Shown: in pieces, positions 17,319 to 38,774 of the stretch
Layout: each line of letters begins with the position of its first letter
How positions within the stretch are numbered: the stretch's first letter is position 1
Source of the DNA: an uncultured Chloroflexia bacterium
GTDB taxonomy: Bacteria; Chloroflexota; Anaerolineae; JAAYZQ01
DNA: 64,000 nt
NCBI GenBank assembly: GCA_963700285.1
Contig: CAVOXA010000007.1
Location: forward strand, 1-64,000
Direction of reading: 5' to 3'
Translations under genes and position numbers: made by a program
Notes under the pieces: model-generated
Told to the model about the DNA's origin: nothing
The model's input: only the letters and a program-made list of their open reading frames with translations
Databases searched by the model: none

Positions 17319-20300
17319 ATGCAAACGGTGAATAGGACGCTCAAAAGGTACGCCCCACCGCGGAGCCTGTCCAGCTGGGTATTCAAGGCAGCCATGGCCC
17401 TGGTCCTGCTGCTTTCCCTGGTCCTGCTGCTGCCCGGGGTGGGCTACAGCGCCAACCCGGCGCCCAACCAGATCTACTATGTGCCCATGCGGGACAATGA
17501 TCTGCTGACGATGCTGGAGGATATCGACCAGCCGGCGGAGGACGGTGCCTGGCCTGATCCGGCAAGCCCGGTGCGGACCATTGCCTCCATCACCATCGGT
17601 TCCACGGGCACGCTGGTCTACTATGACCAGTGGGAGGACGGCTACGAGGCCAACGCCTCCATGGGCAATCCCACCAGCCTCTACAACAGCACCACCAACC
17701 CCGACGGTACCCAGATCTGGGGCGACGGCATCCTGTCCAACGGCTGTCCCCCGGCCATCGACAATGTGGCCAATCCCTGTGCTACTGCCGCCGATGACCA
17801 GTTCAATGCTGGGGACGTGATCACCCTCGACAACAAAGTACACATGCCCCTCACCGACGGCGCGACCCCCAATGGCCAGTACCTGGACCAATTCTCCACG
17901 AGCGCCTACAACAACAGCGACGGCTCCACATCGTGGACGACCAGCTGGGTGGAAAGCGGCGATACTGGCGGCGCGACCAGTGGCGACATCCAGGTCACCG
18001 GCGGCAAGCTGCGGTTTATGAACGCGGAGGGTGGGGATTACATCAGCCGCGTCGCGTCTGTTCCTGCTACCGCGGATAGGGCAATCCTTCATTTCACGAT
18101 AAATCCACTCTTCTCTTCGCAGAGCGACGTTATGGAAGTATGGGCCACCAGCGGCGCTGGATATACAAGGGTGAAAACCATCGATGCCGATAACCATCCC
18201 CTTGAGGAGCCCTACGCCGTCAACCTCACCGGCTTCAAGGGTACCTCTATGGGGATTAGGTTCCGGCAGGCCAGCAGCCTTGGTTCCAATCAGGGGTGGG
18301 AGATCGACGATGTGGAGATCACGTGGGGTGAGGCCCATACCCGAAGCGCGAGCCGAGTGTACTATGACGGCGGCGACAAGATCGGCGCTACCTTCCCGGT
18401 GGCTCTGACCCGCGTGGGCACTCCCCACGTGCCCGGCTCGGTGATGGCCGGCGCCACCGAGATGGAAGAGATCGACCTGTGGGGCACCTCCTTCGTGGCT
18501 CCGGTGGGCGAGGACACGCCCGACGCCAATACCAGCGCCTTCGAGTACGTGTACCTCTGGATCATGGCCAAGGAGGCCGGCACAACGGTCCAGATCGATA
18601 GCGATGCCAACGGCTCCGTCGACGATACCCAGACCTTGGCCGAGGGCGCTAACTACTACCGGCGCGGCATCCAGGAGGGGGCCACGGTTACGACCAACCA
18701 TCCGGTGCAGGTGCACCTCGTGGCCGCCGACCAGGGTGATACCTTTGAGCAGCGTTGGTACCACCTGGCGCCTCGTGACCAGTGGGACTCGAGCTATTAT
18801 GCCAGCGTGGGCACTGCTCCTGCGAGCTCTGGCTCGGGCTGTACTGAGGTTTGGGCCTACAACCCCAATGGCAGCCAGATCACGATCAGCGTCGACCGAC
18901 CAGGCGCTGCCACTACCACTTTCAACGTGGCCGCTAACGACGCCGATGAATGGCCAGGATCTGCGACCAACTTGGCTGGACGTGGTCTCCATCTATACAC
19001 TACCGGTGGTCAAGATTTCCTGCCCTTTCAGATCATCGACTGCACCAAGGACACGAGTGGTACCGAAGGGCGCCTCTTCGACTGGGGCTATCCCTTGATC
19101 CCGGCGGACCAGCTCACCTCTCAGTATCTGGTCGGCTGGGCGCCTGGCTGCACGGGTGACCCCATCTCGCCGGGGCTCTGCCAGGACCCTGACATCAACG
19201 GCGGCGCCGCCGCAAGCCGCAGCGTGATCTGGGTTACGCCCGTGCAGAACACGACGGTGTATGTCGCCTTTGACGGTGGCGACATCAACTGCCCTGGCGG
19301 TGCAGGTGCGGACTATTCCTTCAGCGCCACGGCGCTGACTTCCTACGGCCTCGTCGACGACCCGGGCGACGTCATCTCGGGCGAGGACGACTATGACATG
19401 ACCGGCGCCCGCATCGTCACCTGCAACGGCGTTGACCTGGCCGTGGCCTATGGCCAGGATCCGCCCCGCTCAGGCGGCAACGACGCTGAGGCCCTGGACC
19501 TGGGTACCGTTGTCCTACCCCTGGCGGGGGACATTACCCTCGAAAAGTCGGTGGACAAGACCCTGGTACCCCGGGGCGGCTCGGTCACCTATACCTACCT
19601 TGTGCGAAGCACCGGCCAGCCGCTGAGCGACGTCTCGGTGACCGACAACAAGTGCTCGCCGGCGGTGCCGACACTGAGCGGTGGCTATAACGTCGGCGAC
19701 ACGGCCAACCTCGGCTTCTTGGACCCCGGCGAGAGCTGGCAGTACACCTGCAGCACCAACATCTACCACCAGACCACCAACGTGGCCTTTGCCAGCGGCA
19801 CACCCGATGGCGGCACAACCTACATCGACAGCCCGCCTGACGAGGAGACGGTCAACGTTACCGACCCGGCCGCCATCGGCGACTATGTCTGGTTCGACGA
19901 GGATGGCGACGGCGACCAGGATGCTGGCGAGGCCGGCATTCCCAACGTCAAGGTGGAGCTGCTGGACAACCAGAACGCCGTAGTGGCCACAACCTGGACC
20001 GACGCCGACGGCGGCTACGTCTTTACCGGACTTGCGCCCGGAACCTATACCGTCCGCATCGACACGACCACGCTGCCCGATCCAGATGGCGCGGGTCCTG
20101 CTGGCCTGCACCCGACCTACGACGAGGATAGCGGAACGACCAACCCCGATCACCAGACCAGCGTGACCGTAGCCGCCGGCGACGAGCACATGACGGCCGA
20201 CTTTGGCTACAACTGGGCGACGCCTGGCGAGACCAACGACCCTGGGAATCAGAATGAACCCAAGGGCGCCATCGGCGACCGGGTCTGGATCGACGCCGAC

Positions 20301-22595
20301 GGCCAGGGCGACCAGGATCCGGGCGAGCCCGGACTGGGCGGCGTTGGCGTGGTGCTGAACTATGACTCGGACGGCGACGGCGTGATCGACAAGGTCTATG
20401 GTACCACGACCACGGATGACGCTGGCATGTATATCTTTGACGAACTGCCGCCAGGTATCTATACAGTCGTCATCGTCGGCGGCGCGACGCTGCCAAGCCC
20501 TGGCGATGCGGCGGTCACTTCCGGCCAGGCGCCATCCGGCTATGGCCAGACCGGCGACCCCGACGACACGGTCGACAACAAGACGACCGATCCGGTCGTA
20601 TTGGGGCCGGGTGATGTTTACCTCAATGCAGACTTTGGCTACCAGCCCTCGGGCAACAGCGGCACCATCGGCGACATCGTCTGGCTGGATGCCGATGCCG
20701 ACGGTGTTGGCCCCAATGGCAATGGTGCCAGCCCAGGGGACGACGATTCCGAGTATGGCATTCCCAATGTGACTGTGGCCCTCATCAAGGACTCCAACGG
20801 CAATGGTCAGTGGGATGCTGGTGAGCCGATTATCGCTACCGACGTCACCGACGAGAACGGCGCCTATTCCTTTACCGGCCTGCCCCTGGACGATGGAGAC
20901 GGCGATGCCGACTACCTGGTCTGGGTCAATGACACCGACAACGTACTTGGCGAGCAGGCCCCGACCTATGACAAAGACGGTACGTCACCGGCTGCCGGGC
21001 AGGAGACCGGGCTGGGGATCAGCGCCACGGCGCTGGCCGACAGCGCCGGAAACCGGCAGCGGTTGGACCAGGACTTTGGCTACGCCCCGCCCGGACACGA
21101 TACGGGCGAGGGTCTCATCGGCGACACGATATTCCTGGACCGGAACGGGGACAACACGCCCAATGCCGGCGAGGGATTGGAGGGTGTGCGGGTCTGGCTC
21201 TACGACTCGACCGGTACCACCCTCCTGCGCACGACTCATACCGACGAGAATGGCAACTACTACTTTGGCGACCTGGAGCCTTCGGGCACCTACCAGGTCT
21301 GGGTCGATACCACGACCCTGCCCAATGGCGGCGCCGGGCTGACCAACACCGTCGATCCCGATACGGCCAGTCCTGGCGATAGCAAATCGACGGTCAACCT
21401 GGGCGCTGATCCCGATGGTATCGACCTGGACCAGGACTTTGGCTACCGTGACACTAGCGACCCGAACACCATCGAGGGTACCCTATGGAATGATCGGGAT
21501 GCCGATGGCCTTCTGGAGGGCGCGGAACCGGGCCGCTTTGCCAACGTCAAGGTGGCGCTCTACGACAGCGGTGGTGACATCGTCGGCTACACCTACACCG
21601 ACAACAATGGCTTCTTCCAGTTCACGGGTCTCCCGGATGGCACCTACACCGTGGACGTGGTCGATGACGGCAACGTGCTGAACGGCTTCTGGCACTCGTT
21701 GGGCACGGCCAATACCGACAACAACAGCCAGGTGGATCCCTACACCACCAGTGTGGGGCCTGGCCAGAGGCTGGTCAACTGGGCCGACTTTGGCTACTAT
21801 GTGGACCCGGGCGCCCTGGGCAACTGGGTCTGGAATGACGTCAACGGCGATGGCATCCAGAATGACGGCGCAAAAGGCATCCCCAACGTCGAGGTCAAGC
21901 TGCAAATCACCTACCCCGGTGGCGCCACCGTCACTGTGACCACCAAAACCGATGCCAGCGGTTACTATAGCTTCCCCAACCTGCTGCTGGATGAGGACTA
22001 TAACGGCGACACCAGCACCGCCCCGGAGCCAAGCTACCAGATAAGTATCAACATTGCTCAGCCAGCTCTGGCGGCCTTCACCTTTCCATCCCCACTATCC
22101 CCACCAGCTTTAGGCAACCAGTTCAACGACTCGAACAACCCTGCTGGTACCAGCGCTCAGCCGACGCAAGGTATGACGGATGTATCCTCCGCAGCGGATG
22201 GTACTGCGCCCGCCTCCTACGACTATGGGTTTGGCGGCGCGCCAACGGGGGTCGAAGGCGTCATCGTCGGGACCTTTACGGCGGCGTGGGAAGGCGATGA
22301 GATCGTGGTCCGGTGGGCCACGGTCAGCGAACTGGATGTCAAGGGCTTTTACGTCTATCGCGCTACGTCTGAAGAGGGCACGCGGACCAAACTCAATGAC
22401 GACTTGGTGCCCAGCGCCATGCCGGGCAGCCCGACGGGTGCGGACTACAAGTATGACGACGAAACGGCGCAGCCTGGGGTCAAGTACTACTACTGGCTGG
22501 AGGGCATAGATCTGCGCGATGGGGCAACGCCCTACGGCCCGGCCGTGGTGGTGCCCTACCGTGGCTATCTGCCGCTGCTCTTCAAGAACCACTAG
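17319..22595 (+). CDS. Large secreted surface protein with DUF11-like and multiple SdrD-B-like repeats
   Basis: ATG 17319 after AGGAGGAGG; signal peptide; repeats IGD.VW.D.DGDG.QD.GE.G; LEKS..VTYTY module; C-terminal shared domain and YLPLLFKNH tail. Confidence 0.85.
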   Translation: MQTVNRTLKRYAPPRSLSSWVFKAAMALVLLLSLVLLLPGVGYSANPAPNQIYYVPMRDNDLLTMLEDIDQPAEDGAWPDPASPVRTIASITIGSTGTLVYYDQWEDGYEANASMGNPTSLYNSTTNPDGTQIWGDGILSNGCPPAIDNVANPCATAADDQFNAGDVITLDNKVHMPLTDGATPNGQYLDQFSTSAYNNSDGSTSWTTSWVESGDTGGATSGDIQVTGGKLRFMNAEGGDYISRVASVPATADRAILHFTINPLFSSQSDVMEVWATSGAGYTRVKTIDADNHPLEEPYAVNLTGFKGTSMGIRFRQASSLGSNQGWEIDDVEITWGEAHTRSASRVYYDGGDKIGATFPVALTRVGTPHVPGSVMAGATEMEEIDLWGTSFVAPVGEDTPDANTSAFEYVYLWIMAKEAGTTVQIDSDANGSVDDTQTLAEGANYYRRGIQEGATVTTNHPVQVHLVAADQGDTFEQRWYHLAPRDQWDSSYYASVGTAPASSGSGCTEVWAYNPNGSQITISVDRPGAATTTFNVAANDADEWPGSATNLAGRGLHLYTTGGQDFLPFQIIDCTKDTSGTEGRLFDWGYPLIPADQLTSQYLVGWAPGCTGDPISPGLCQDPDINGGAAASRSVIWVTPVQNTTVYVAFDGGDINCPGGAGADYSFSATALTSYGLVDDPGDVISGEDDYDMTGARIVTCNGVDLAVAYGQDPPRSGGNDAEALDLGTVVLPLAGDITLEKSVDKTLVPRGGSVTYTYLVRSTGQPLSDVSVTDNKCSPAVPTLSGGYNVGDTANLGFLDPGESWQYTCSTNIYHQTTNVAFASGTPDGGTTYIDSPPDEETVNVTDPAAIGDYVWFDEDGDGDQDAGEAGIPNVKVELLDNQNAVVATTWTDADGGYVFTGLAPGTYTVRIDTTTLPDPDGAGPAGLHPTYDEDSGTTNPDHQTSVTVAAGDEHMTADFGYNWATPGETNDPGNQNEPKGAIGDRVWIDADGQGDQDPGEPGLGGVGVVLNYDSDGDGVIDKVYGTTTTDDAGMYIFDELPPGIYTVVIVGGATLPSPGDAAVTSGQAPSGYGQTGDPDDTVDNKTTDPVVLGPGDVYLNADFGYQPSGNSGTIGDIVWLDADADGVGPNGNGASPGDDDSEYGIPNVTVALIKDSNGNGQWDAGEPIIATDVTDENGAYSFTGLPLDDGDGDADYLVWVNDTDNVLGEQAPTYDKDGTSPAAGQETGLGISATALADSAGNRQRLDQDFGYAPPGHDTGEGLIGDTIFLDRNGDNTPNAGEGLEGVRVWLYDSTGTTLLRTTHTDENGNYYFGDLEPSGTYQVWVDTTTLPNGGAGLTNTVDPDTASPGDSKSTVNLGADPDGIDLDQDFGYRDTSDPNTIEGTLWNDRDADGLLEGAEPGRFANVKVALYDSGGDIVGYTYTDNNGFFQFTGLPDGTYTVDVVDDGNVLNGFWHSLGTANTDNNSQVDPYTTSVGPGQRLVNWADFGYYVDPGALGNWVWNDVNGDGIQNDGAKGIPNVEVKLQITYPGGATVTVTTKTDASGYYSFPNLLLDEDYNGDTSTAPEPSYQISINIAQPALAAFTFPSPLSPPALGNQFNDSNNPAGTSAQPTQGMTDVSSAADGTAPASYDYGFGGAPTGVEGVIVGTFTAAWEGDEIVVRWATVSELDVKGFYVYRATSEEGTRTKLNDDLVPSAMPGSPTGADYKYDDETAQPGVKYYYWLEGIDLRDGATPYGPAVVVPYRGYLPLLFKNH

Positions 22596-22873: not shown

Positions 22874-24106
22874 CTAGCGGCGTCGGAAACGCGCACCCAG
22901 TTCGGTGGTCAGTACGCGGAAGGGGTGCCAGAACCGCGCCAGCCGGACAGCGCCGGGGGCAGCCAGGGCATAGCGGTAGCTGAGCCACTCGTCGCCGGGC
23001 AGCAGGATAAAGCGCCCAAAGCGCAGCCATCCGGCCGGCCCGTCGATGAGCGCCAGATGGAGCTGGTAGGGACTGTCCGTACTGTTGGGCACGGGAGGGC
23101 GCGCATGGAACCGCGGACTTGGCCGTACTGTTGGGCGTCGCGGACGGGGCGCGCCCACTGGGGCGCTACCAGGCGGCGGACCCAGCGCCGGCGCAGGGCG
23201 CCAGGTTGTAGATCTGCCAACACCCGGTCGGGGATGGGCGTGCCCAGCAGTTCGCGGCTGAAGGACAGGCCGAAATAGACCGGGACGCGTACCTGGAAGG
23301 CCGAGGCCCTCTCCAGGAGTCGATCCCAGTTGAGGCCGGGATAGGCGGCGACGGTGCGGTCGATGTCGGTCAGGTTTAACAAATGGGCATAGCCATGGCC
23401 AAAGCCCCAGTGCAGGCAGAGGTGCAGCAGGCCGTCCTCGGGGCACAATTGCCAGGGTGGTCCCGGCCGTCGCTCAAGCGGAGCGGCAAGGCGGCCTGCC
23501 ACAGGGCCTCCATGTCGATGCGCGTGGCGTGGTGCAGCCACTTGTGGGTCGTCAGATGCCAGTGCAGGTCCAGCATCAGGTTGCCCACCGGCGAGGTCGC
23601 GGTGGAGGTTGATCTCGCCGCTGTAGCGCGCCTCGTAGGCAAAAGAGTGGCCGGGTGGTCCAGGCTGGGCCTGGTAGCCCAAGGGGCGCCAGGGCCTCGG
23701 GAACCTGTGGAACCTGGTCGCGGGGCACCAGGATGTCGAGATCGACCATGGGCCGGGGGGCGATGCCTTCATAGACTGTGCTGGCCAGGGCTGCGCCTTT
23801 GAGCGCCAGTGTGGGAATACCAGCCTCGGCCAGGCGGCCCAGGACGCGATCCAGCTCCTGGAACTGGAGGGTATTGAGCCTGGCGGCGCCATAGTAGGCC
23901 TGCCGGAGTTGCTCCTGGATCTCGGGTGGAGCGGCCAGGTTCTTCTGTTGGAGGGCGGCGTACAACTGGGGTGCGACGCCATCCCGTTGTGCCAGCTCGA
24001 CGATGCTGGTCCAGGATCCGGGTCCGGGTAGGGCAGGGGCCTCGGGCCGCTGGCCAGCGGCCAGCAGATGGCATAGGGAAGCCCAGGTGGTGCTTTGCTC
24101 AACCAT
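22874..24106 (-). pseudogene. Uncharacterised nucleotidyltransferase family protein (PF14907-like), about 4 frameshifts as given
   Basis: LALKGAALA..VY...PRPMVDLDILV, LDLHW and PEDGLLHLCLH motifs spread over three reading frames (shifts near 23685, 23585, 23460, 23090). Confidence 0.8.
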
Positions 24107-24153
24107 GGGGGGATTATAACCGGCTTGGACGAAAGGAGCAAGTCCAACCGCGT

Positions 24154-24251: not shown

Positions 24252-24294
24252 GGATCCAAAAGGGATGGACTGGGGATGGTGGCCGTACTGCGAT

Positions 24295-24370: not shown

Positions 24371-24667
24371 ATGGTCGATTCTTTAGCAGTTCAACTCGAA
24401 AAAGACCCGTCGGTCGTCCACCGGGAGATAGCCGGTGAGTCGATCCTGGTCCCTATTCGCAGCCGGTCGGCCGACCTGGAGAGCATCTTTACCCTGAACG
24501 CATTGGGATCGCGTATCTGGGAGCTGATGGATGGCGACCGCTCGCTGGCCGAGATCAAGGAGCTACTGGCCGCAGAGTATGACGTGTCGCCGCAAGAGTT
24601 GGAATTGGACCTGCTCGAGTTCGTCGACCAACTGGTCGAGGCTGGCGTAGTCAGAGAGGTTGTCTAG
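24371..24667 (+). CDS. PqqD family protein (stand-alone RiPP recognition element)
   Basis: 98 aa from ATG 24371; REIAGESILVP..IFTLN..G..IWELMDG.RSL.EI...L..EYDV is a typical PqqD/RRE pattern. Confidence 0.88.
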   Translation: MVDSLAVQLEKDPSVVHREIAGESILVPIRSRSADLESIFTLNALGSRIWELMDGDRSLAEIKELLAAEYDVSPQELELDLLEFVDQLVEAGVVREVV

Positions 24668-25782
24668 GTGGACTGTCCGCACGTGCCTGATCTCCCGTTT
24701 GGCGAACTTGCCGGTAGGATCCGCAAGCAAGCCTACGAGAATAGGATCCCGCTCAGCGGCACGCTGGAGCTTACCTACCGCTGCAACAACAACTGTGTGC
24801 ACTGCTACTGCAACCTCCCGGCGGGCGACCGCAGCGCGAGGTCCAGGGAGCTGAGCGGCTCGCAGGTGAAGGCCATCCTGGACGAAATTTCCGAAGCCGG
24901 GTGCCTGTACCTGAGCATTACGGGCGGTGAGCCGCTCCTCCATCGCGACTTTGCAGAGATCTGGGTCCATGCCAAGGAAAAGGGTCTTCTTGTCTCTCTG
25001 ATGACCAATGGCACCGCGATCACGGAGGACGTGGCTGGCCTTCTGGCTGACTATTACCCGCTCGCCGTGGCCATAACGGTGTATGGCATAACGCGGGAGA
25101 CCTACGAACGCGTGAGCCGGGCGCCGGGTTCCTACGACAAGTGTATGGACGGCATCGACAGGCTCATGGCGCGGGGGATCAAGCCCAACTTGAGGACGAT
25201 TCCCATGGCCGCTAGCAGCGGCGACGTGGGGGGCGTGAGGGCCTTTGCCAAGGAGCGCGGGCTCAAGTTTCAGTTCGACCCACTGCTCACGCCGCGCAAG
25301 GACGGCGGAGCGTACGACTTTACGCAGAGGCTGTCGCCTCGAGAGATCGTCGAGCTCGACCTGCTGGATGAGGAGCGAGTCGAAAGTTTTCGAGATCTGG
25401 CGTATGACCGGCCTGCTGCGCCGGTCAATGGGGATCTGTTTCATTGTGGCGCGGGCGCCATCTCATTCAGTATCAACCCCTACGGGGAATTGGGCATGTG
25501 TCTCATGTCATCCCCTGCCTTCCCAGGATACGATCTGCTGTCGGGCTCGTTTGCGGAAGGTTGGTTCGATCATATCCCCGTCTGAGAGATCGAAAGATTA
25601 CTCGCAGCTTCGCGTGTGTGACCTGTGACAAGCGAGTCATCTGCGGCTGGTGTCCGGTGTGGTCGGATTTGGAGAACGGCAATCCGGAGAGCCCGGTAGA
25701 GTACCTGTGCCAGGTGGCGGACCACCGGGCGGTCGTTCTCGGCTTGGGCCAGCAGGGGCAGCATTCTGGCGAGCTGTCGTGA
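24668..25782 (+). CDS. Radical SAM/SPASM peptide maturase (one frameshift near 25580)
   Basis: ELTYRCNNNCVHC (CxxxCxxC), ITGGEP, CGAG..SINPYG...C; the SPASM end CVTC...ICGWCP...LC continues in another frame after a C4 run. Confidence 0.88.
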
Positions 25783-28158: not shown

Positions 28159-31100
28159 ATGGCACTCAAGATCCGTTGGCTTGGTAGAGTCTTCTTTGTG
28201 TTGGTAGCTGTTGCGATGATCTGGCCCGCGTCGCCGGGCCATGCTGTTGCTTCTGAGAGAGCAATTGTAGACAATGCGGTCAGGCTGCTGTCCGCGACGG
28301 AGGTTGGAGCCACGTTCGAGGTCAGGGTACCCCGAGACCGGCTGCAGGTTGAGGCCGTATCGTCAGGTGGCCAGGAGATGTCCAAGGTGTCGATCCCTGG
28401 CTGGAGCACGACCGGGCGGGCTGGAGCGCCTGCTCTGCCCATGGTGGTGGCCACGCTGGGCGTACCGCACGGCGCTGAGGTTACGCTGAGCGTTGGCCCG
28501 GGCGCGCCCGCCTTGTTGGCCCTGCCCGCTCCCGTGGCGGCGGTGCCGGCGCTCAGTCCTGAGTGGAGTGAACCTGCGCCTGGGGTCCTGTCTCAAGGGC
28601 TGCCAACACTTGGGTTCGAAAACCAGCCCGATCCCGAGATATATGGTTCGGACCAGGCTTATCCCGGTCCCCTGGCCGCGATCGTGAGCGACCGCACAGT
28701 GAATGGCCAGCGCGTGATTGGCGTAGCGGCTTATCCGGTCCAGTACCAGCCAGACTCGGTGTTGCTCGTGGTTTATGAGGATCTGGAGATCCAGATCGCC
28801 TTCGAGGGCGGGACTGGCGGAGACGCAGAGGGATTTGCTGCCCAGCCAGGGTCCGCGGACGATGCGGGCCGCCTGGGGCGTGGAGTGTTGAACGAACTGG
28901 CAGCGGAGGCCTGGGTCCAGGGGACCGCAGCGCCCGCCGGGACGCTTGCCGCCCCATGGCTGCCGCCTGACCCGGGCTACCGGGTGTCGGTCGAGCATGC
29001 CGGCATCTACAAGCTGACCTATGGCGACCTGTCCGGTGCCGGCGTACTCGACACCAACCCCGATCCGCGGACCTTCCGGCTCTACAACAAGGGCCAGGAG
29101 GTAGCCATCCATGTGGAAGGTGAAGGCGACGGGCAGTTTGGCGTGGACGACTATGTGCTTTTTTATGGGGAAGCTGCTGACTCGAAATATACGCCCTACA
29201 ACGTCTACTGGCTGACCTATGCGCCAACCGTGGCCGGTGACGAGCGGCGGATGCCGGACCGCGATGGAACGCCGGATCCCGCTGGAGGAACCTCGCCTGT
29301 TGGCCACAATGATGTCCTTCACCGCGAAGAGAACCACTACTATGTCACCATTCTGGATGGCGACCAGGACCTGGAACGCTTTGTGTGGAGCTATGTCTAT
29401 GCACCCTCCATACCCCAATGGTCGCACTCCTTTTCGCTGGCCGGTCCCGCGACCGGGACGGCCATGCTCACGGTGGCTATGTTTGGTGGGAATATCCGTG
29501 ACAGTTATGCCGACCCGCATCACACCGTCGTGACCCTGAACGGGGTTGAACTCGAGAACGTGGTGTGGGATGGGATCGAGTGGTACGTGATGAGCGAGCC
29601 GCTTGATCAATCTATCCTGAAAACCAGCCCGGAGGTCAATACTCTCGTGGTCTCCAGTCCCAATGACCAGGGCGAAAGCTATGATCTGGTCTACATCGAC
29701 TGGGCGACGCTCGAGTTTGTGAACAGCTTTACCGCGGTGGACGATCAGCTTCGTTTCCACTATGACACCCCGGGCATTTGGACCTATGCCATCGAAGGTT
29801 TCACGACGGACGATGCGATTGTTTTTGACATAACGGATCCAAGTTCGGTGGCGCGCATTACGGGTGGTGGCCAGATCGCCGCCAATCCGGCCGCATATTC
29901 CTTCGTCGACGAGGTGGCGGCGGGCGCGGCGACCGACTATATCGTTCTGACGCCGGCCGCCTTCAGGTCGCCGGCGGGTATCGAGCTGGATACACCGTCT
30001 GACTTGGGCGCGGTGACGGGTGCGGACTGGGTCGTCGTGACGCACTCGCTATTTTCGGGGGCGGCGGCCCGGCTGACAGCCCACCGGGCAGCCCAGGGTT
30101 TGGTGGCTTTCCAGGTGGACGTCCAGGACGTCTACGATCAGTTTGGTTACGGCATAGAGGGCGCCTACCCCATCCACGATTTTCTGGAATACACCTTTTA
30201 CAACTGGCAGCCGAGGCCAGTCTACGTGGTCCTCTTTGGCGATGGATCGGCCGATCCCAAGGACCATGAGAAGCGCGGTAGCGTCAGCTTCATCCCGCCC
30301 TACCTCGCGCCGGTGGATCCCTGGATCGTGGAGACGGCGGCCGACAACCGTTACGTGGCCTTTACAGATACGGGAACCTACCCGCTCCCGGACATGATGC
30401 TGGGGCGCCTGGCGGTGGACACGGAGCACCAGGCCAACGTCGTCGTGAACAAGATCATCGACTATGAGCTGGCGCCAGAACCTGGGGACTGGAAAGAGAG
30501 CGTGCTCTTTGTTGCAGACAACGACGATCCGGGGATCGCGTTCACAGATTACTCGGACGACATTATCAACTGCTGCCTTCCGGCCTCCTACCAGTACGAG
30601 AGGGTCTACTACCTGGATACGCACCCGACTTCAGGTGGAGCCAAGGCGGACATCCTAGCCAACATCACCAGCGGACAGTTCATCGTCAATTATGTCGGCC
30701 ATTCCTCGGTGACGACCTGGGCTGGCGAGTCGCTTTTCGGCGTCGGAGACCTCGGGTCCCTGGGCAACGGGGGAAAACTGCCCGTCATGCTGCCCATGAC
30801 CTGCTATGACGGGTACTACCACGGCCTGTATTCGTCCTCCCTGGCAGAGTCCATCGTCCGTATCGAGGGAAAAGGCGCCGTGGCAAGCTGGTCGGGAACA
30901 GGCCTGGGCGTGGCGCAGGGACACGACGAGCTGAACCGGGGCTTTTTTGACGCGCTGTTCAAAGACGGCAAGCGCACCATCGGCGAGGCAACGATGGCGG
31001 GCCTACAGCGGCTGGCGGACGGCGGCACCCACCTGGACCTCCTGGATACCTACCTCCTGTTTGGGGACCCAGCGCTCCAGCTCACGCAGGCGCCCACCTC

Positions 31101-31431
31101 GGTGGAACTGGCCTCTTTTGAGGCGATCGCGAAGGGGGGCCAAGCGGTGATGCTGCGCTGGCGGACGGCCAGCGAAGCTGGCGTACTGGGCTTCGATCTG
31201 TTCCGGCAGGACGCGCGGGGTACCGTCCAGCTTAATGATGGCCTCATTCCCAGCAGGGCGCCTGGCACGGCGATGGGAGCAGCCTATGAATGGCTGGATG
31301 GCCCCCTGCCCGCTGGTGAGCATCTGTACTGGCTGGAGATCATCGATCAGACCGGAGGCCGGACGCGGCATGGGCCGGCTGAGGCAGTTTTGGCTGAGTA
31401 TCGCCTCCTTCTGCCTTTCGTGAGTCGATAG
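28159..31431 (+). CDS. Secreted C25 (gingipain/PorU-like) cysteine peptidase 1
   Basis: Likely ATG 28159 plus signal peptide; propeptide-like N-terminus; DVQDVYDQFG, MLGRL, NYVGH (His), MTC (Cys), YLLFGDP; C-terminal shared domain and LLLPFVSR tail. Confidence 0.88.
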   Translation: MALKIRWLGRVFFVLVAVAMIWPASPGHAVASERAIVDNAVRLLSATEVGATFEVRVPRDRLQVEAVSSGGQEMSKVSIPGWSTTGRAGAPALPMVVATLGVPHGAEVTLSVGPGAPALLALPAPVAAVPALSPEWSEPAPGVLSQGLPTLGFENQPDPEIYGSDQAYPGPLAAIVSDRTVNGQRVIGVAAYPVQYQPDSVLLVVYEDLEIQIAFEGGTGGDAEGFAAQPGSADDAGRLGRGVLNELAAEAWVQGTAAPAGTLAAPWLPPDPGYRVSVEHAGIYKLTYGDLSGAGVLDTNPDPRTFRLYNKGQEVAIHVEGEGDGQFGVDDYVLFYGEAADSKYTPYNVYWLTYAPTVAGDERRMPDRDGTPDPAGGTSPVGHNDVLHREENHYYVTILDGDQDLERFVWSYVYAPSIPQWSHSFSLAGPATGTAMLTVAMFGGNIRDSYADPHHTVVTLNGVELENVVWDGIEWYVMSEPLDQSILKTSPEVNTLVVSSPNDQGESYDLVYIDWATLEFVNSFTAVDDQLRFHYDTPGIWTYAIEGFTTDDAIVFDITDPSSVARITGGGQIAANPAAYSFVDEVAAGAATDYIVLTPAAFRSPAGIELDTPSDLGAVTGADWVVVTHSLFSGAAARLTAHRAAQGLVAFQVDVQDVYDQFGYGIEGAYPIHDFLEYTFYNWQPRPVYVVLFGDGSADPKDHEKRGSVSFIPPYLAPVDPWIVETAADNRYVAFTDTGTYPLPDMMLGRLAVDTEHQANVVVNKIIDYELAPEPGDWKESVLFVADNDDPGIAFTDYSDDIINCCLPASYQYERVYYLDTHPTSGGAKADILANITSGQFIVNYVGHSSVTTWAGESLFGVGDLGSLGNGGKLPVMLPMTCYDGYYHGLYSSSLAESIVRIEGKGAVASWSGTGLGVAQGHDELNRGFFDALFKDGKRTIGEATMAGLQRLADGGTHLDLLDTYLLFGDPALQLTQAPTSVELASFEAIAKGGQAVMLRWRTASEAGVLGFDLFRQDARGTVQLNDGLIPSRAPGTAMGAAYEWLDGPLPAGEHLYWLEIIDQTGGRTRHGPAEAVLAEYRLLLPFVSR

Positions 31432-31529: not shown

Positions 31530-34484
31530 ATGGAAAAGCGTGGAAGGTTCAGAATGGCGGGCTGGTGCCTGATCATCGTCCTGATCGTGGTGTCCCTCCC
31601 TTCAGCGGCGGGGGCGGGCAGCTTGGCCCAGCCGGGCCGGGCAGGCGCCGTCGATCTGCTTTCTTCCAGTGAGTCTGGGCTGAGTTGGTTGCTGCAGGTT
31701 CCCACGGATCGCCTGGCAGTGGAGCCGGTCGCCGTGGATGGGGAGACGTTCGCGGCCATCTCGCTGGCAGGCTGGGGCGCGACCCAGCAGGCCGGAGCGC
31801 CGGAGCTGCCGAGGCTGGTGACGGCCATCGGCGCGCCGCCCGGTGCGGAGGTGCGCGTCCAAGCCTTACCAGGCGCGGCAACTTCAAGGACGCTGCCTGG
31901 CCGGGTGCTGCCCGTGCCCACGCTGGAAGCGCGCTGGGACGGCGAGGCACTGGTCGCAGGAAGCCCGTTCCTCCCCTCACTGAAGAGCGAGCGGGTGGCC
32001 GATCCGGCGGTCTATGGGGCTGGCGGATCCTACCCCGGAACCCTGGCCGAGGTGGTGAGCGACGGCTGGGTGCGCGGACAACGGGTCGTTGGCATCGCGC
32101 TCTATCCGGTTCAGTACGAGCCTGCCACGGGTGGGCTGACGGTCTATGAGAACCTGGAGGTGCAGGTGCGCTTCGAGGGGGCTGCTGCGGCAGGACGCCC
32201 CGGCGGGGCCCAGGGCCCCGCGCACGAGGCGCTGTTCGAGAGCGAGTTGCTGAACTATGAGGCAGCGCGGAACTGGGCCAGCGCCACAGAGGCGGCGGGT
32301 CCCGAAGCCGTGCCCTGGATGCCGCCGGACCCAGGCTTCCGGGTGTACGTGGAAGAAGAAGGGATTTACAGGCTGTCCTATGGCGAGCTGCAGGCGGCCG
32401 GTGTGCTGGCCGGCAACCCCGATCCGGGGACATTCCGCATGTACAACATGGGCCAGGAGGTGGCCATCCACGTCGAGCTGGGCGGTGACGGGAACTTTGG
32501 CGCGGGGGACTATATACTCTTTTACGGGCAAGCTATCGCGTCCAAGTACAGCCGCTACAACGTGTACTGGCTGACCCACGGTCAGGGTACAACCAAGCCG
32601 ATGGGCAGCCGCGATGGGTCGCCATCGGGAGGGACGGCGCCCGCGACTTTTGATGACCTGCTCCATCTGGAGCAAAACCAGTACTATGTCACGAGTCTGG
32701 TGGGTGATGAAAACCTGGAACGGTTCGTGTGGGACTATTTGTATCCGCCGGAGCGGAACAGTTGGGCGACCAGCCTTTCGCTGACGGCCCCGGCCCATGG
32801 GTCAGAGAAGGCAACGCTCAAGATCCTGGTTCATGGCGGCGATCTGCCGGACAACGCCTCCGATCCTCACCGCGTGCAGGTCTATCTCAACGGTGGTGAG
32901 GTGAAGGACGAATCGTGGAACGGCATCGGCCAGCACGAGATCATCATTGGCAATCTGAGCCAGACCCTGCTCAACGCGGGCAGCAACAACGTGGAGCTAC
33001 GAGCTCCCAGGGCCGAGGACCTGGTGTACGTGGACTGGCTGGACCTAGCCTTTGCCAACACTTTTGTGGCTGGTGCCGACTCGCTGGCCTTCAACCAGGC
33101 CAATCCTGGCAAGTGGCAGTTCGGCATCGACGCCTTTAGCCAGTCCGGCGTGGCGGTCTTTGACGTAACCGACCCGGCCTCGGTGGCACGCATCCTTAAC
33201 GGCAGCGTGACTCCCTCGGGCCCGAGTTTCTCCCTTGCCTTCACGGATCAGATCGCCGCTCCCACCCGCTATCTGGCTCTGGCCAGCACCGCGTTCCTGC
33301 CGGCGGCCAAGATCGAGCGCGACACAGCCTCCAATCTGCAGTCGGCAGCCAATGGCGCGGACTATGTCCTGGTAACGCACCGGGATTTCGCCGCCGCGGT
33401 GGCGCCTCTGGCGGCCTACCGGGCCGGGCAGGGGCTGCGGGTCGTGCAGGTGGATGTGCAGGACGCCTACGACGAGTTCGGCTATGGCCTGCCTAGCGCG
33501 CAGGCCCTGCGCGCGTTCCTGACCTATGCCTACGACAGATGGGTCGATCCTGCCCCCGAGTACGTGCTGCTGGTGGGCGACGGGCATTACGATCCAAAGG
33601 ACTATGGGGGCCATGGGCTGGCGAGCTATATCCCGCCCTACCTGGCGCCTGTGGATCCCTATATCAACGAGACGGCGGCGGACAACCGCTATGTGTCCTT
33701 CACCGCCGGGGACGAAATCCCGGATATGATGCTGGGTCGGATGGCGGTGAATTCGGCCGCGGAGGCCACCGTCGTCGTTAACAAGACCCTGGACTATGAG
33801 AAGGCGCCCGCGCCCGGAAGCTGGAACAACCGCGTGCTCTTTGTGGCTGACGATCCTGAGGCGGGCGCCAACTACCCCAAGATGTCGGACGATCTGATCG
33901 CTTGCTGCCTGCCGGGCAGTTATGGGTCGCCGAAAGTCTACTATACGGTGACCCATCCCACACCCGCTGGGGCCAGGGCCGCCATCCTTTCGGCCATCAG
34001 CGCCGGACAGTTGATCGTACACTATAACGGCCACGCGCTGACGTTCCGGTGGGCGGACGAGTCGCTGTTCAGGTCGAGTGACATCCCGTCCCTGGCCAAC
34101 GGAAACCGCCTGCCCATCATGCTGCCGATGACGCGCTACGATGGCTACTTCCACCAGCCGGTCCCCTCCTCCCAGGGCTCCATGGGCGAAGGCATCGTTC
34201 GCGCTGACGGGAAGGGGGCCGTGGCCAGTTGGTCGCCGGCGGGCGTCAACCTGTCGACAGGGCAGGCGGAGCTCGACAGCGGCTTCTTTGATACGGTCTT
34301 CAAGGCCGGCAGTAGAGTCGCAGGTCAGGCCGCTACGGCCGGCAAGGTGCGTCTGTGGGCGACCGGCAAGAACCAGGACCTGGTGGACACCTTCATATTC
34401 TTGGGCGATCCAGCGCTGGCGATCCATCCGCTCTGGGATGGGGCGTCTATCTTTCTTCCGGTGATCCAGAGGACTGCTCACTAG
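31530..34484 (+). CDS. Secreted C25 peptidase homologue 2 (catalytic Cys replaced by Arg)
   Basis: Signal peptide; HYNGH retained but MTRYDG where the paralogues have MTCY(D/E)G; FLGDP; IFLPVIQR tail. Confidence 0.86.
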   Translation: MEKRGRFRMAGWCLIIVLIVVSLPSAAGAGSLAQPGRAGAVDLLSSSESGLSWLLQVPTDRLAVEPVAVDGETFAAISLAGWGATQQAGAPELPRLVTAIGAPPGAEVRVQALPGAATSRTLPGRVLPVPTLEARWDGEALVAGSPFLPSLKSERVADPAVYGAGGSYPGTLAEVVSDGWVRGQRVVGIALYPVQYEPATGGLTVYENLEVQVRFEGAAAAGRPGGAQGPAHEALFESELLNYEAARNWASATEAAGPEAVPWMPPDPGFRVYVEEEGIYRLSYGELQAAGVLAGNPDPGTFRMYNMGQEVAIHVELGGDGNFGAGDYILFYGQAIASKYSRYNVYWLTHGQGTTKPMGSRDGSPSGGTAPATFDDLLHLEQNQYYVTSLVGDENLERFVWDYLYPPERNSWATSLSLTAPAHGSEKATLKILVHGGDLPDNASDPHRVQVYLNGGEVKDESWNGIGQHEIIIGNLSQTLLNAGSNNVELRAPRAEDLVYVDWLDLAFANTFVAGADSLAFNQANPGKWQFGIDAFSQSGVAVFDVTDPASVARILNGSVTPSGPSFSLAFTDQIAAPTRYLALASTAFLPAAKIERDTASNLQSAANGADYVLVTHRDFAAAVAPLAAYRAGQGLRVVQVDVQDAYDEFGYGLPSAQALRAFLTYAYDRWVDPAPEYVLLVGDGHYDPKDYGGHGLASYIPPYLAPVDPYINETAADNRYVSFTAGDEIPDMMLGRMAVNSAAEATVVVNKTLDYEKAPAPGSWNNRVLFVADDPEAGANYPKMSDDLIACCLPGSYGSPKVYYTVTHPTPAGARAAILSAISAGQLIVHYNGHALTFRWADESLFRSSDIPSLANGNRLPIMLPMTRYDGYFHQPVPSSQGSMGEGIVRADGKGAVASWSPAGVNLSTGQAELDSGFFDTVFKAGSRVAGQAATAGKVRLWATGKNQDLVDTFIFLGDPALAIHPLWDGASIFLPVIQRTAH

Positions 34485-34696: not shown

Positions 34697-34705
34697 TGGT
34701 ATAAT
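34697..34705 (+). promoter_or_regulatory. Extended -10 promoter element
   Basis: TGGTATAAT about 60 nt upstream of C25 gene 3. Confidence 0.45.
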
Positions 34706-34763
34706 CATTGAGGAACTCCGTATTCGGGCAAGCTCGGGGCAAGTCGTGATGGGAGATAGGCAC

Positions 34764-37700
34764 ATGGGACGAAATGCGCGGTGGTTTGGAAGAACTGGAT
34801 TGCTGGTGACCGCACTGGTGCTGGGCGCCATGCTGCTGATGCTCACTGTCGCCCTGGCCGCCGAGGCGCCGAGCGCTGTCCAGACGCAAGAGGGGGATGG
34901 ACTGCGTCTGGTTTCTGCATCTGAGGCGGAGGTGGTATTCCGCGTCTCTCTGCCCCCAGATCTGTTGGATCTTGAGCCACTCTCCATCGATGGCCAAGCG
35001 TACGTGCAGCCGCGGATCACGGGCTGGGCGACCAGTGGGAGCCCGGGTGCGCCGGAGCTGCCCTATGTGCTGGGCGCCATCGGGGCGCCCCCTGGCACCC
35101 AGGTGCGGGTAGAGATAGAGCCGGGCACGGCGTACAGGTTCGAGCTCTCGGCGCCCGTGGCGCCGGTGGCAACCATCACGGCCGGGATGGACTGGGAAGC
35201 CCTCGGAAATGGAGAGCTGGCCCTCCCACGGCCGGCCCGGGATCTTGAAATGGATGCGGCGGTTTATGGCGCGGGTGGCTCCTACCCGGGAGCGCTGGCC
35301 GAGGTCGTGAGTGATGCCCAGGTACGGGGCCAGCGCGTGGTGGGCATCGCCGCCTATCCAGTGCAGTACGAACCCACGACTGGCGTGCTGACGGTCTATG
35401 AGAATCTTGAGGTACGGGTGCGCTTCGAGGGGGCTGGCGCCGTTGGGCGCCCTGGGGCTGTAGTTGCGGCCGAGTCCCCGGTTTTTGAATCGCTGTTCGA
35501 AGGCGGGTTGTTGAACTACGATCAAGCCCGGGCGTGGCGCCGAGGGCAAGAGCCAGCGGTTCCTGACGTCGCGCCGTGGACGCCTCCGGAGCCTGGATAC
35601 CGCGTCTATGTGGAGAAGGAGGGGTTCTACAGGCTAACGCATGGAGAGCTACAGGCGGCCGGTGTATTGGCTGGAGACCCCGATCCGGGGACCTTCCGCA
35701 TGTACCACCAGGGCCAGGAGGTGGCGATTCACGTCGAGTTGGGTGGCGACGGCAGCTTTGATTCAGGCGATTATCTGCTCTTTTACGGGGAGGCGGTAGC
35801 ATCCAAGTACACGCGGTACAATGTGTACTGGCTGACCCACGGCCAGGGCTCGACCAAAGCGATGGGCGATCGGGATGGGACTCCGGCAGGAGGAACGACA
35901 CCGGCCACCTTTGTCGACCACGTCCATCTGGAGACAGACAAGTACTATATCACCAGCCTCATCGGCGATGAGAACCTGGACCGGTTCGTCTGGGACTACC
36001 TTTACCCCCCTTCCAAGCCGCAGTGGTCGCACACGTTTCCGCTGGCGGAACCTGTGACCGCCGGGCCGTACACGGCAACGCTGACCCTGGCGATGTTTGG
36101 CTCCCTGAAAAGCCCCATCACGCCAGATCACCACACAAAGATCTTTGTAAATGGTACACCTGTGGAGGATGCCACCTGGGACGGCACGGCCTGGCGCATC
36201 TCGACGCCCAAAGTCAAGCAGTCGTTGTTGGTATCCGGGCCAAATACGATAGCCGTTCAGGCCCCCAACGACTTGGGTGTGGGATACGATCTGGTGTACA
36301 TTGATGAGGCGGACCTAGTGTACACCAGCACATTTACAGTCGCCGGCGATGCCCTGTCCTTTGCCTACGACGTGACGGGTACCCTGGACTATGTGCTGGA
36401 GGGCTTTACGACTTCTGACATTGTCGCCTTTGACGTGACGGACCCCACCTCGGTCAAGACCATCTCCGGCGGGAGCACCGCCGCCTCCGGGCCGGGCTAT
36501 GCCTTCACCTTTTCCGATGCGGTGTTGGGTCTGAAGGACTACAGGGTGCTGGCGCCGGCCAACTACCGGTCTGTGGTACGGATCGAGCAGGATACGCCAT
36601 CCCACCTGCAATCCGCGGCCAACGGGGCGGACTATATTGTGGTCACCCATCCGGACTTTGCTGCGGCGGTCGCGCCGCTGGCTGCCCACCGGGCAGCGCA
36701 GGGGCTGCGCGTGGTCCAGGTGGAGGTACAGGACGTCTACGACGAATTTGGCTATGGCATGGCCGGGGCGCAGGCCATCCAAGCCTTTCTCAAGTATGCC
36801 TACAGCACCTGGAAAACTCCCGCTCCATCCTACGCGCTACTGGTGGGTGATGGGCACTATGACCCCAAGAATAACGGCGGGCACGGGCTGCCCAGCTATA
36901 TGCCTCCCTACCTGGCGCCGGTGGATCCGTGGATAACTGAGACGACGGCGGACAACCGTTATGTGTCTTTCACGGGAGGGGATCAGGTTCCAGACATGAT
37001 GTTGGGCCGCCTGGCGGTGAACTCGGCCGCCGAGACGACCGTGGTCGTAAACAAGATCCTGAACTATGAGCAGAATTCGCCCCCTGGGGATTGGCGCCAG
37101 GAGGTACTCTTGGTGGCGGACAATGAGGACCTTGGCGGGAAATTCGACAAACTCTCGGACGATCTGATCGCCTGCTGCCTGCCGAGCCCCTACTTGCCCC
37201 AAAAGGTCTATTACAAGGTAACGCATGCCACGGTCGGCGAGACCAACACGGCCATCCGCTCCCGCATCAGCGACGGCAAGCTGCTGGTGAACTATATTGG
37301 GCACGCTTCCATCACCAATTGGGCCGGCGAACCCCTGTTCAGGTCCACGGAAGTCCCCTCGCTGACCAATGGCGAGAAACTGCCGATCATGCTCGGCATG
37401 ACCTGCTACGAGGGTTACCACCACCGCCCTCTGCCGCCCAAGGACGACGCGCTGGCCGAGGTCATTGTGCGCGCGGCAGGCAAGGGCGCGGTCGCCAGTT
37501 GGTCCCCGACCGGCCTCGGCGTGGCGACGGGGCACGACCAATTGAACCGCGGCTTTTACAAAGCAGTCTTCCAGGGGGGGAGCCGCATCCTGGGCGAGGC
37601 GGTGATGGCCGGCAAGCTCCAGCTTGCCGCCTCTGGCCAGAGCCCCGATCTGTTGGACACCTTTACCCTCTTTGGCGACCCGGCCCTCCAGATCAATGCC

Positions 37701-38774
37701 CTGGACGCGGATCTTCAGCTTGACAAGGCCGTCGAGCCGGCGGGCCTGGTCGAGCAGGGCCAGGTATTGACCTATACCCTGACCTTCAGCAATGCCGGTC
37801 CGTCCATGGCTCACGGCGTCGTGCTGACCGACGTGGTTCCCGCCGAGCTGGTGGGCGCCACGGTGGTGTATTCCAGTCCCAACGTCCTTGGCCAGAGACC
37901 TGGCACTCCCTTTGCCTGGGAGATCGCTGACCTGAGTTCCGGGGAGGGTGGCGAGATCCAATTCGCCGGTACAGTGCCGATCGCTTCGCTGCCCGGTCCG
38001 TACACAATCAAGAACGAGGCCGAGATCACCATGGCCGAGCCGGATAGCGATCCGTCGAGCAATACGGCCTTCACCAACACGCCGGTAGCCGGCCAGATCT
38101 ATGGTCTCTACCTGCCCTTGGTAGCGAAGCGCTTCGATCCGCAGTTGTACGACGATTTTGAGAACCCCAGGTACGACATTTCCTTCAACCCCAATCTGTG
38201 GGACCGGGCCGGGCATCCAGCCTATGGGATCCGGCAGTGGGCGGGTACCCTGGCCTTTGAGGGCGATACAGCGCCTGCCAATACGGGCGCTGAAATGTAC
38301 TTGAAACAACCCCAGCAGCGCAGCCTGAGCGAGGTTCAGGAGTTCGAAGCGGAACTCAAGTTCGACTCAGGACAGGTCGGGGGCTATGCCTCGGTCAAGA
38401 TCCAGACCGTAGCCGGCCTGGGCAGCGGCCAGGGTTGGTGGACGCAGTGCACGCTGGCCGCTGCGGACAGCGTGGCGCCCTCGATCGTCTGCGACGTGTC
38501 CACCTACGATGGCACGGGTGACGCCAGAGAATACCGGTCTCCCGTGGTACCCACCCAATTCGATACCTGGTATACCGTCCGGATCGAGACAGATCCTGAT
38601 ACCGCCCGACTGAGTTTCTATGTGGACGGTGTCCTCATCGGCACGCATCTTCCCCAGGACGCTGCCGCGCTCAAGACCGCCAAACTGAGCCCCAAAGTCG
38701 GGGTCTGGAACGGGGCGGCAGGGACAACCGCTACCCGCCACGTAGACGAGGTACGCATCACGCCAGCAAGGTGA
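34764..38774 (+). CDS. Secreted C25 cysteine peptidase 3 with DUF11-like and C-terminal beta-sandwich domains
   Basis: Signal peptide (start could be 34746-34764); NYIGH, MTCYEG, LFGDP; ADLQLDK..LTYTLTFSNAGPS; internal LYLPLVAKR. Confidence 0.87.
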   Translation: MGRNARWFGRTGLLVTALVLGAMLLMLTVALAAEAPSAVQTQEGDGLRLVSASEAEVVFRVSLPPDLLDLEPLSIDGQAYVQPRITGWATSGSPGAPELPYVLGAIGAPPGTQVRVEIEPGTAYRFELSAPVAPVATITAGMDWEALGNGELALPRPARDLEMDAAVYGAGGSYPGALAEVVSDAQVRGQRVVGIAAYPVQYEPTTGVLTVYENLEVRVRFEGAGAVGRPGAVVAAESPVFESLFEGGLLNYDQARAWRRGQEPAVPDVAPWTPPEPGYRVYVEKEGFYRLTHGELQAAGVLAGDPDPGTFRMYHQGQEVAIHVELGGDGSFDSGDYLLFYGEAVASKYTRYNVYWLTHGQGSTKAMGDRDGTPAGGTTPATFVDHVHLETDKYYITSLIGDENLDRFVWDYLYPPSKPQWSHTFPLAEPVTAGPYTATLTLAMFGSLKSPITPDHHTKIFVNGTPVEDATWDGTAWRISTPKVKQSLLVSGPNTIAVQAPNDLGVGYDLVYIDEADLVYTSTFTVAGDALSFAYDVTGTLDYVLEGFTTSDIVAFDVTDPTSVKTISGGSTAASGPGYAFTFSDAVLGLKDYRVLAPANYRSVVRIEQDTPSHLQSAANGADYIVVTHPDFAAAVAPLAAHRAAQGLRVVQVEVQDVYDEFGYGMAGAQAIQAFLKYAYSTWKTPAPSYALLVGDGHYDPKNNGGHGLPSYMPPYLAPVDPWITETTADNRYVSFTGGDQVPDMMLGRLAVNSAAETTVVVNKILNYEQNSPPGDWRQEVLLVADNEDLGGKFDKLSDDLIACCLPSPYLPQKVYYKVTHATVGETNTAIRSRISDGKLLVNYIGHASITNWAGEPLFRSTEVPSLTNGEKLPIMLGMTCYEGYHHRPLPPKDDALAEVIVRAAGKGAVASWSPTGLGVATGHDQLNRGFYKAVFQGGSRILGEAVMAGKLQLAASGQSPDLLDTFTLFGDPALQINALDADLQLDKAVEPAGLVEQGQVLTYTLTFSNAGPSMAHGVVLTDVVPAELVGATVVYSSPNVLGQRPGTPFAWEIADLSSGEGGEIQFAGTVPIASLPGPYTIKNEAEITMAEPDSDPSSNTAFTNTPVAGQIYGLYLPLVAKRFDPQLYDDFENPRYDISFNPNLWDRAGHPAYGIRQWAGTLAFEGDTAPANTGAEMYLKQPQQRSLSEVQEFEAELKFDSGQVGGYASVKIQTVAGLGSGQGWWTQCTLAAADSVAPSIVCDVSTYDGTGDAREYRSPVVPTQFDTWYTVRIETDPDTARLSFYVDGVLIGTHLPQDAAALKTAKLSPKVGVWNGAAGTTATRHVDEVRITPAR

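Follow-up and report, generated by a model that had tools for sequence, protein, structure and literature searches.

Gene content of the locus

Profile searches of the open reading frames (ORFs) in the window, a stretch of 64,000 nucleotides of contig CAVOXA010000007.1 (C7) from an uncultured Chloroflexia bacterium (genome G000; 7.05 Mb, 89% complete), revealed that positions 17319 to 38774 hold the gene of an SdrD-B surface protein, a six-gene cassette for the modification of a ribosomally synthesised peptide (RiPP), its precursor included, and three C25 protease genes. Every gene named in a preliminary description of this locus was thus found in its place. That description had also set them within about 39 kb of secretome genes; the run of secreted proteins is real, with a length of about 34 kb (4807-38774). 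Below, G001 is a genome of the same genus (sister genome), and handles beginning with L denote loci that were compared.

The secreted SdrD-B-repeat protein, the predicted cargo (17319..22595, + strand), matched Pfam SdrD_B over six stretches (E 4e-85). Its ATG at 17319 is preceded by AGGAGG, and its C-terminus consists of a PT-GV fibronectin type III (FnIII) domain followed by the tail YLPLLFKNH. By alignment, this putative sorting domain (22242..22560, + strand) opens with the motif PT|GV and continues as an FnIII fold of about 105 aa.

The three C25 genes are on the + strand, and their products all match Peptidase_C25 (E 1e-73 to 4e-86) and Propeptide_C25 (PF08126), with an N-terminus that is hydrophobic by eye. 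C25-1 (28159..31431) has PorU-type N-terminal domains, the catalytic His (30700) and Cys (30802), and an FnIII domain of its own beginning PT|SV (31093-31400), followed by the tail LLPFVSR. C25-2 (31530..34484) ends in a YLP-box tail and has Arg for the catalytic Cys (CGC, 34134), as does its orthologue in G001; it is likely inactive. A sequencing error was rejected as the source of this Arg, which is common to both genomes; among the read comparisons listed, none falls at 34134. In C25-3 (34749..38774) the His (37302) and Cys (37404) are intact, and the protein has DUF11, an internal YLP-box and a laminin-G-like end. A fourth C25 gene of G000, at C10:2089597-2090967, has an intact dyad and a YLP tail, is apparently frameshifted and has no cassette nearby.

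The cassette begins with an NTP_transf_5 nucleotidyltransferase of the PsmN/LppN type (22874..24106, − strand), split over three frames, one of which matched PF14907 (E 3e-11). On the + strand follow a stand-alone PqqD protein, the predicted leader-binding RiPP recognition element (RRE; 24371..24667, PF05402, E 2.8e-12), a radical SAM/SPASM maturase (24668..25782, PF04055, E 2e-23) whose CxxxCxxC and SPASM cysteines lie in two frames, with a frameshift near 25574-25580, and a 53-aa precursor (25809..25970) with its own ribosome-binding site, a YxxP leader, an EEAVL junction, three Cys and a C-terminal Gly-Ser. An HprK-related kinase (25986..26871, frameshift at about 26362) matched TIGR04249/TIGR04355 at E 1e-9, below the cut-off, and the last gene encodes an S26 peptidase of the SipW/archaeal type (26885..27376, TIGR02228, E 1.3e-11) with intact GxSMxP, HR and GD motifs, the predicted leader peptidase. 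The gaps between the genes from PqqD through S26 are 0-26 bp. Contigs of an RNA library overlap parts of the cassette, which is not a measure of expression.

In this assembly three cassette genes, those of the nucleotidyltransferase, the radical SAM protein and the kinase, carry frameshifts. Short-read contigs of close strains differ from it by one-base indels at 23453, 23459, 23599, 25574 and 26362 (depth 3-4), the last of which was present in two runs, and the kinase of G001 is a single frame of 294 aa. The frameshifts are therefore likely errors of the long-read assembly, and pseudogenisation was rejected.

The C25 proteases and the FnIII domain

The preliminary description regarded the C25 proteins as PorU/gingipain-like, and the PorU-type architecture was confirmed by profile, sequence and fold searches and by alignment. 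Compared by sequence with solved structures, C25-1 matched PorU (6za2) best (E 1.5e-17), followed by RgpB (8e-12). With a 718-aa model (pLDDT 94), PorU was again first by fold (Foldseek E 6.5e-30), residues 1-718 aligning to 24-787 of 6za2 over 568 residues (Z 23.1, root-mean-square deviation (rmsd) 6.0). Among the matches listed, PorU was the only C25 structure to align over both the N-terminal and the catalytic parts, the gingipains aligning over the catalytic domain only; the catalytic domain taken by itself has RgpB as its nearest match in shape (Z 43.7, rmsd 1.9 over 320). About 350 aa of PorU-type domains lie between propeptide and catalytic domain, unlike in gingipains. The match to the PorU profile NF033707 runs from position 8 (8-749 of 1095), so that the C-terminal third of PorU is missing. 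As judged from these comparisons, the C25 proteins appear to resemble PorU by anatomy and to fall outside the PorU family.

Searches of four Chloroflexota genomes, G000 (89% complete), G001, G015 and G029 (100%), found no PorV, SprA or LpxC; in the comparator G064 all three were found. There is therefore no anionic lipopolysaccharide (A-LPS) acceptor here.

The FnIII domain was modelled with AlphaFold at pLDDT 93.5 and has six long strands. The best matches in a fold search were FnIII domains (Z 11.5, rmsd 2.1 over 99 residues); all of the top 50 were of FnIII type and structures of the C-terminal domain (CTD) of type IX secretion system (T9SS) cargo were not among them, a result with which kinship is still compatible. 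No Pfam or NCBIfam model matches the domain, and the match of TIGR04183 (T9SS type A CTD) on the SdrD-B protein falls in the SdrD repeats. In 38 aligned domains the opening motif P-T-[AGS]-[VIL] has Pro in 26, Thr in 31, Ala, Ser or Gly in 33 and Val, Ile or Leu in 37, and in the model it occupies the coil immediately ahead of strand 1. PorU is reported to cleave at X/(GSA)(VLI), for example DKAEPT/ATEQIV (PMC4560394), and its site to be situated in the linker that precedes the folded signal domain (PMC11969387). The PT-[AGS]-V start of the domain fits the cleavage rule as given in PMC4560394.

The domain is also distributed as C25 is. Among 61 relatives, strong C25 hits (E < 1e-40) and the domain occurred together in 33 genomes, C25 alone in 3, the domain alone in 3 and neither in 22, so that the domain is present in 33 of the 36 C25 genomes; the domain profile was built from C25-adjacent copies, and related genomes are not independent. 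With one genome per family the corresponding counts were 16, 3, 1 and 19 (p 4e-7, kinship not being removed), and in 50 genomes of other phyla they were 7, 4, 1 and 38. The association of C25 with the FnIII domain is the tightest found. Cargo adjoins C25 without any cassette in L064, L066, L068, L175, L176 and L183, and in Acidobacteriota and others cargo, domain and C25 form one ORF. Both the co-occurrence and the PorU-type motif with which the domain opens bear out the suggestion that C25 is tied to a shared C-terminal domain. Two further copies in G000, at 2-286 of the window (the contig start) and at C5:281009-281320 (near the end of C5), end in 'IDPGLW..' and not in YLP.

What had been described as a "shared C-terminal domain or tail" proved to be two separate features. 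Within the window the FnIII domain is carried by the SdrD-B protein and C25-1 only; the YLP tail is found on these two and on C25-2, and is internal in C25-3 (residue 1122), as in G001. The YLP-box is already catalogued by NCBIfam (NF053834, NF050076): with NF053834 the tail of C25-2 scored 15.4 bits against a cut-off of 10. The internal box of C25-3 scored 12.9 against 15, and the tails of the SdrD-B protein and C25-1 had no match. One could take C25 as the sortase for this short tail, which ends C25 proteins and many cargo proteins and is present in 51 of the 15,058 ORFs of G000 against about 2 expected. However, in the closed genome G035 (98% complete) 8 YLP-box hits exceed the cut-off and there is no hit for C25 or the FnIII domain, deltaproteobacterial C25 systems end in Gly-rich 'CFI' tails, and the Acidobacteriota fusions are without a YLP tail. 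Since the YLP tail occurs without C25, it is a signal separate from the FnIII domain, and its sorting by C25 is the least credible of the explanations considered. Elsewhere in the window a PKD-domain protein (54865-57054, − strand) also has a YLP tail.

Linkage of the cassette to C25 genes

Profiling of C25 against the cassette, as the preliminary description proposed, found the two linked across phyla, repeatedly. The 61 relatives hold 26 kinase loci (E < 1e-10). In 15 of them, from 8 families, a C25 gene was within 6 kb on the same strand, 3 were unlinked and 8 lay on contigs too short for a judgement; 15 of the 18 testable loci are thus linked, the expected chance of a C25 gene within 10 kb of a kinase being about 1.3%. 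The linkage was also present in 12 of the 16 kinase genomes in a sample of 250 from the phylum, scoring being limited to 9 and 4 candidates in each genome; among the best 80 of 180 GTDB kinase loci C25 was in the flank of 26. The C25 gene usually lies directly 3′ of the kinase or S26 gene, and in L154 and L162 within the cassette. Linkage changes state at least 7 times on the radical-SAM tree, and on the C25 tree, whose sampling is biased to cassette loci and some of whose cassette labels rest on one or two genes, it is spread as far as deep branches, with 11 changes.

Fifteen of the 26 flanking C25 genes (Acidobacteriota and others) are fusions of S26, cargo, domain and C25; those on the tree form one clade, and the fifteen probably go back to one event. 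In L049:1-782, and in L117 and 14 others at 10500 onward, S26 is fused before the signal helix, its partner being the FnIII domain alone or a cargo-domain-C25 protein of 2300-2900 aa. Genome G102 has two close copies of the cassette, one in a Wzc/Wza locus and the other enclosing a domain-C25 gene, near an ABC exporter and Wzc (L154, L134). In two genomes a classical sortase gene lies directly 3′ of a cassette-linked C25 gene (L169:6479-7387, L171:12937-13848).

Each module also occurs without the other. Of 79 loci, 15 have the cassette next to Wzc, 9 next to Wza and 21 next to an ABC exporter (Desulfobacterota, Nitrospirota, Omnitrophota and others), and no C25 was found in 39 of 50 cassette genomes, which were chosen mostly for lacking a local C25 and whose completeness is not reported. 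Conversely, five genomes that are 94-100% complete have C25 and the domain with no PqqD, no nucleotidyltransferase over the cut-off and no kinase of the cassette type, their kinase hits being weak and in long ORFs only. In the phylum sample 22 of the 35 genomes with C25 were without a kinase hit at E 1e-25; weaker cassette genes adjoin C25 in at least 2 of the 22 (L180, L184). In one family all 18 of 18 genomes have C25 and no kinase hit, and three of its loci that were inspected show no cassette genes. Separation in other genomes, named beforehand as an argument against a joint role, was therefore seen in many genomes in both directions, and linkage was common as well (15/18, 12/16): cassette and C25 are two modules, coupled often and repeatedly, not always. 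Exosortases were tried as a substitute sortase where C25 is lacking: 13 of the 50 genomes from other phyla and 6 of the 20 from Chloroflexota have them, none matched to a cassette contig, and the idea was rejected.

Such separate occurrence would suit independent envelope genes that merely share genomic islands, with C25 as secreted, self-processing, gingipain-like proteases and FnIII as a structural domain. The gingipain-type propeptide, the nearness of the catalytic domain to RgpB and the joining of cargo and protease in one polypeptide in some lineages agree with this. It leaves unexplained, however, why the N-terminal domains are of PorU type, why a Thr outside the fold is conserved, why domain and C25 are distributed nearly one to one, and why C25 genes lie inside the cassette or are fused to its peptidase; we regard it as improbable.

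Another explanation, that the modified peptide is a dedicated acceptor, its phospho-Ser bound to an envelope glycan and its free amine to cargo, with cassette-less lineages having switched acceptor, draws on the linkage far above chance, its repeated changes on both trees and the fusion in 15 loci. When A-LPS is missing, PorU takes medium peptides, with a preference for (GS)(VLI) (PMC4560394), and the Cys-free precursors beside C25 start with Gly-Ser/Thr-Pro at the register of linear polyphosphorylated peptides (LPP). Gly follows AVL in 27 of 33 C25-linked precursors against 6 of 52 unlinked ones. This raw contrast was not upheld on independent pairs (p 1, from 3 starred pairs; 72 rows were used, with 12 precursor loci omitted as near-duplicates, short or without radical SAM), and co-evolution of the core Gly with C25 was rejected. 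The window core at the LPP register starts Val-Leu, as in 71 of 83 precursors, and is not a preferred acceptor; the fusions are probably a single event, cassette genomes without detected C25 and C25 genomes without the cassette are found as above, and possible stalk acceptors (below) occur in loci that still keep the cassette. A dedicated acceptor is therefore doubtful, if less so than independent genes. The earlier proposal of the peptide as anchor or acceptor is weakened as an obligatory role, the modules occurring apart; the peptide could be an optional, lineage-specific acceptor.

Maturation of the exported peptide by C25 (leader removal, trimming or cyclisation), also put forward earlier, would be consistent with the usual position of C25 directly 3′ of the kinase or S26 gene. 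However, the cassette has its own SipW-like peptidase, a type whose Bacillota homologue has been shown to remove the leader (PMC13381572), and genomes for which no C25 was found contain precursors that are almost identical. This role was set aside as very improbable.

The 83 homologous precursors have much in common: the last residue is Ser or Thr in 78, the core holds three Cys in 78, and in 69 an Ala stands at a distance of 16 residues from the leader Tyr, which coincides with the LPP cut register. A second class, Cys-free and of the form Y..P...LE.RA|G[ST]P, was seen in L043, L046, L049, L051, L053 and L179, in loci that are without radical SAM, mostly adjoin C25 and are closer to LPP. Small membrane proteins adjoin the kinase in L043:4203-4682, L053, L059:14348, L184:5780, L038:14050 and L049:6427, and contain a truncated FnIII copy that is preceded by a membrane helix and often followed by another.

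Stalk proteins were found in seven loci (L038:4412-5608, L046:7209-8276, L051:5624-6688, L052:16065-17207, L059:10355-11251, L179:9755-10921, L184:9608-10651) and not in G000. Each has a signal peptide, then a copy of the same FnIII domain with A/S/N-V at its start and, beyond a linker rich in Pro and Thr, a membrane helix at the C-terminus; most have a lipobox-like Cys, and their genes are always just 5′ of a propeptide-less C25 gene (one starred clade). The predicted mature N-terminus mimics P1′-P2′ of the cargo site, so that the stalk could be a protein acceptor.

Other features of the window include a 112-bp repeat in five copies (27513..28083, no strand; Tandem Repeats Finder), of which one strain contig skips 446 bp. 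It was considered as part of the system and rejected, being a dispersed genomic repeat with copies on C4, C6, C7 and C10. Upstream, at 4807-16943, are the tandem genes of three secreted M28 peptidases that contain Big_9 repeats, a near-identical block being common to the first and second; neither the YLP tail nor the FnIII sorting domain was found on the three. Directly after the C25 run, 39430-44250 holds genes for an MttB methyltransferase, a corrinoid protein, and DHDPS-like and saccharopine-dehydrogenase-like proteins. Pentapeptide-repeat genes, a 398-bp duplication and a 29-bp triple repeat are located at 51060-51813, 61214-62010, 59792-60583 and 42874-42963.

Proposed mechanism and comparison with known systems

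The reading that best combines these data is a T9SS-independent, PorU-like sortase with an LPP-like peptide as an optional partner in the envelope, to which we give a probability of roughly one half. C25 would cut surface proteins at PT|[AGS]V, ahead of the C-terminal FnIII domain, and cleavage at this site is probable. It would then join the cut protein to an amine in the cell envelope without a T9SS, transpeptidation being about evenly balanced with plain hydrolysis. Candidate acceptors are an amine of an envelope glycan, the membrane-anchored FnIII stalk (in the loci other than G000) or the modified peptide, for which the occurrence of either module by itself leaves no more than the role of an optional anchor. 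In the cassette, by analogy with LPP and pseudomycoidin, the RRE would guide the S26 peptidase in cutting off the leader, the likely site being behind the Ala of the LPP register (EEA|VLG...); the terminal Ser would be phosphorylated, and the phosphate may receive a sugar through the nucleotidyltransferase. Family knowledge suggests radical-SAM cross-links at the three Cys.

Several points weigh against this reading. The FnIII domain is carried by only four proteins of G000, a small number beside three or four C25 paralogues, and FnIII folds are common; the Val conserved behind the motif adjoins strand 1, so that it may be structural; and three extra residues in the SdrD copy of the window give two candidate sites, PT|GV and VE|GV. 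The three C25 proteins score 261.7, 245.7 and 270.6 bits with NF033707 against a cut-off of 420, which five comparators from other phyla pass. Curated PorUs also form a separate group on the C25 tree (SH-aLRT 97), a tree made by a quick method, on which long branches meet and the outgroup is not one side of a branch, and in which curated-model PorUs from other phyla are used in place of P. gingivalis PorU and gingipain sequences. No exporter gene was found in the cassette of the window (17-39 kb); an MsbA-like transporter is present in other loci, and unlinked homologues of about 35% are elsewhere in G000. Finally, the recurrent linkage and the S26-C25 fusion exceed what an optional partner needs. 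In a further reading the peptide would be a linker, bound through phospho-Ser to glycan by kinase and nucleotidyltransferase and through its amine to PT|xV-FnIII cargo by the PorU-like sortase, and the same peptide class would prime or decorate Wza/Wzc polysaccharide where C25 is absent; we hold this form of the acceptor proposal only tentatively.

The attachment of large surface proteins in Chloroflexota is for the most part without an explanation. The locus supplies a candidate enzyme, cleavage site and cargo domain for it, and the radical-SAM version of the cassette, which accompanies polysaccharide export in some phyla and a sortase-like protease in others, suggests a link to the cell envelope. 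If the peptide-linker reading were true, it would mean a new sorting pathway in several phyla and the first structural role for RiPPs of the LPP and paeninodin type. The open literature searched, subscription journals and bioRxiv supplements being outside its scope, contains no description of the pairing of cassette with C25 or of C25 with the FnIII domain. In the literature consulted, PorU-type sorting is described only with T9SS and LPS.

The C25 proteins share with PorU of the Bacteroidota T9SS (NF033707; PDB 6ZA2; PMC4560394) the C25 His-Cys domain and the N-terminal domains, and in both systems cargo ends in a beta-sandwich domain after an X/(GSA)(VLI)-type site. Unlike PorU, those of the window are below the family cut-off, lack its C-terminal third and have a propeptide, and the cargo domain is FnIII-like with no T9SS-CTD hit. 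Propeptide and C25 catalytic fold are common to the gingipains (Rgp/Kgp), in which the catalytic domain directly follows the propeptide as it does not here. The YLP-box motif (NF053834, NF050076) is likewise a short C-terminal tail, in this system separate from the FnIII signal.

PqqD, an ScmC-related kinase and radical SAM/SPASM are also found in SynChlorMet (TIGR04248-04251), which has two radical SAM proteins and not one. Scores for ScmC, ScmD, ScmE and ScmF were 38/125, 18.6/100, 55/400 and 74/400 bits relative to the cut-offs, from frameshifted or partial ORFs, and the intact G001 kinase scored 31.5/125 bits on ScmC. The C-terminal Ser, HprK-like kinase and NTP_transf_5 are as in paeninodin and pseudomycoidin (PsmK, PsmN; PMC6993621); in pseudomycoidin the C-terminal Ser is the residue that the kinase phosphorylates, and hexose on this phosphate depends on the NTP transferase (PMC6993621). 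Unlike in paeninodin-type lasso peptides, no macrolactam cyclase or B2 peptidase was found among the scanned ORFs of the window locus.

LPP (Popov et al. 2026, PMC13381572) have core genes in capsule loci, their role being stated as unknown. The terms 'radical SAM' and 'C25' do not occur in the main text of that paper, and in one supplement both are only column heads among 834 neighbouring domains. The present cassette differs from LPP by the radical SAM/SPASM protein with its three-Cys core, the linkage to C25 and the absence of an MsbA-like exporter from the window locus. Its conserved Ser is C-terminal and not Ser3, with no Ser in the core before the terminal one, and of the LPP leader YxxPxVLxHQxIxFETxxS it shares YxxP alone, ending in EEAVL and not FET. 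In common with LPP it has the stand-alone RRE, the SipW-like peptidase, the HprK-like kinase, the NTP transferase, the YxxP leader and the association with polysaccharide loci.

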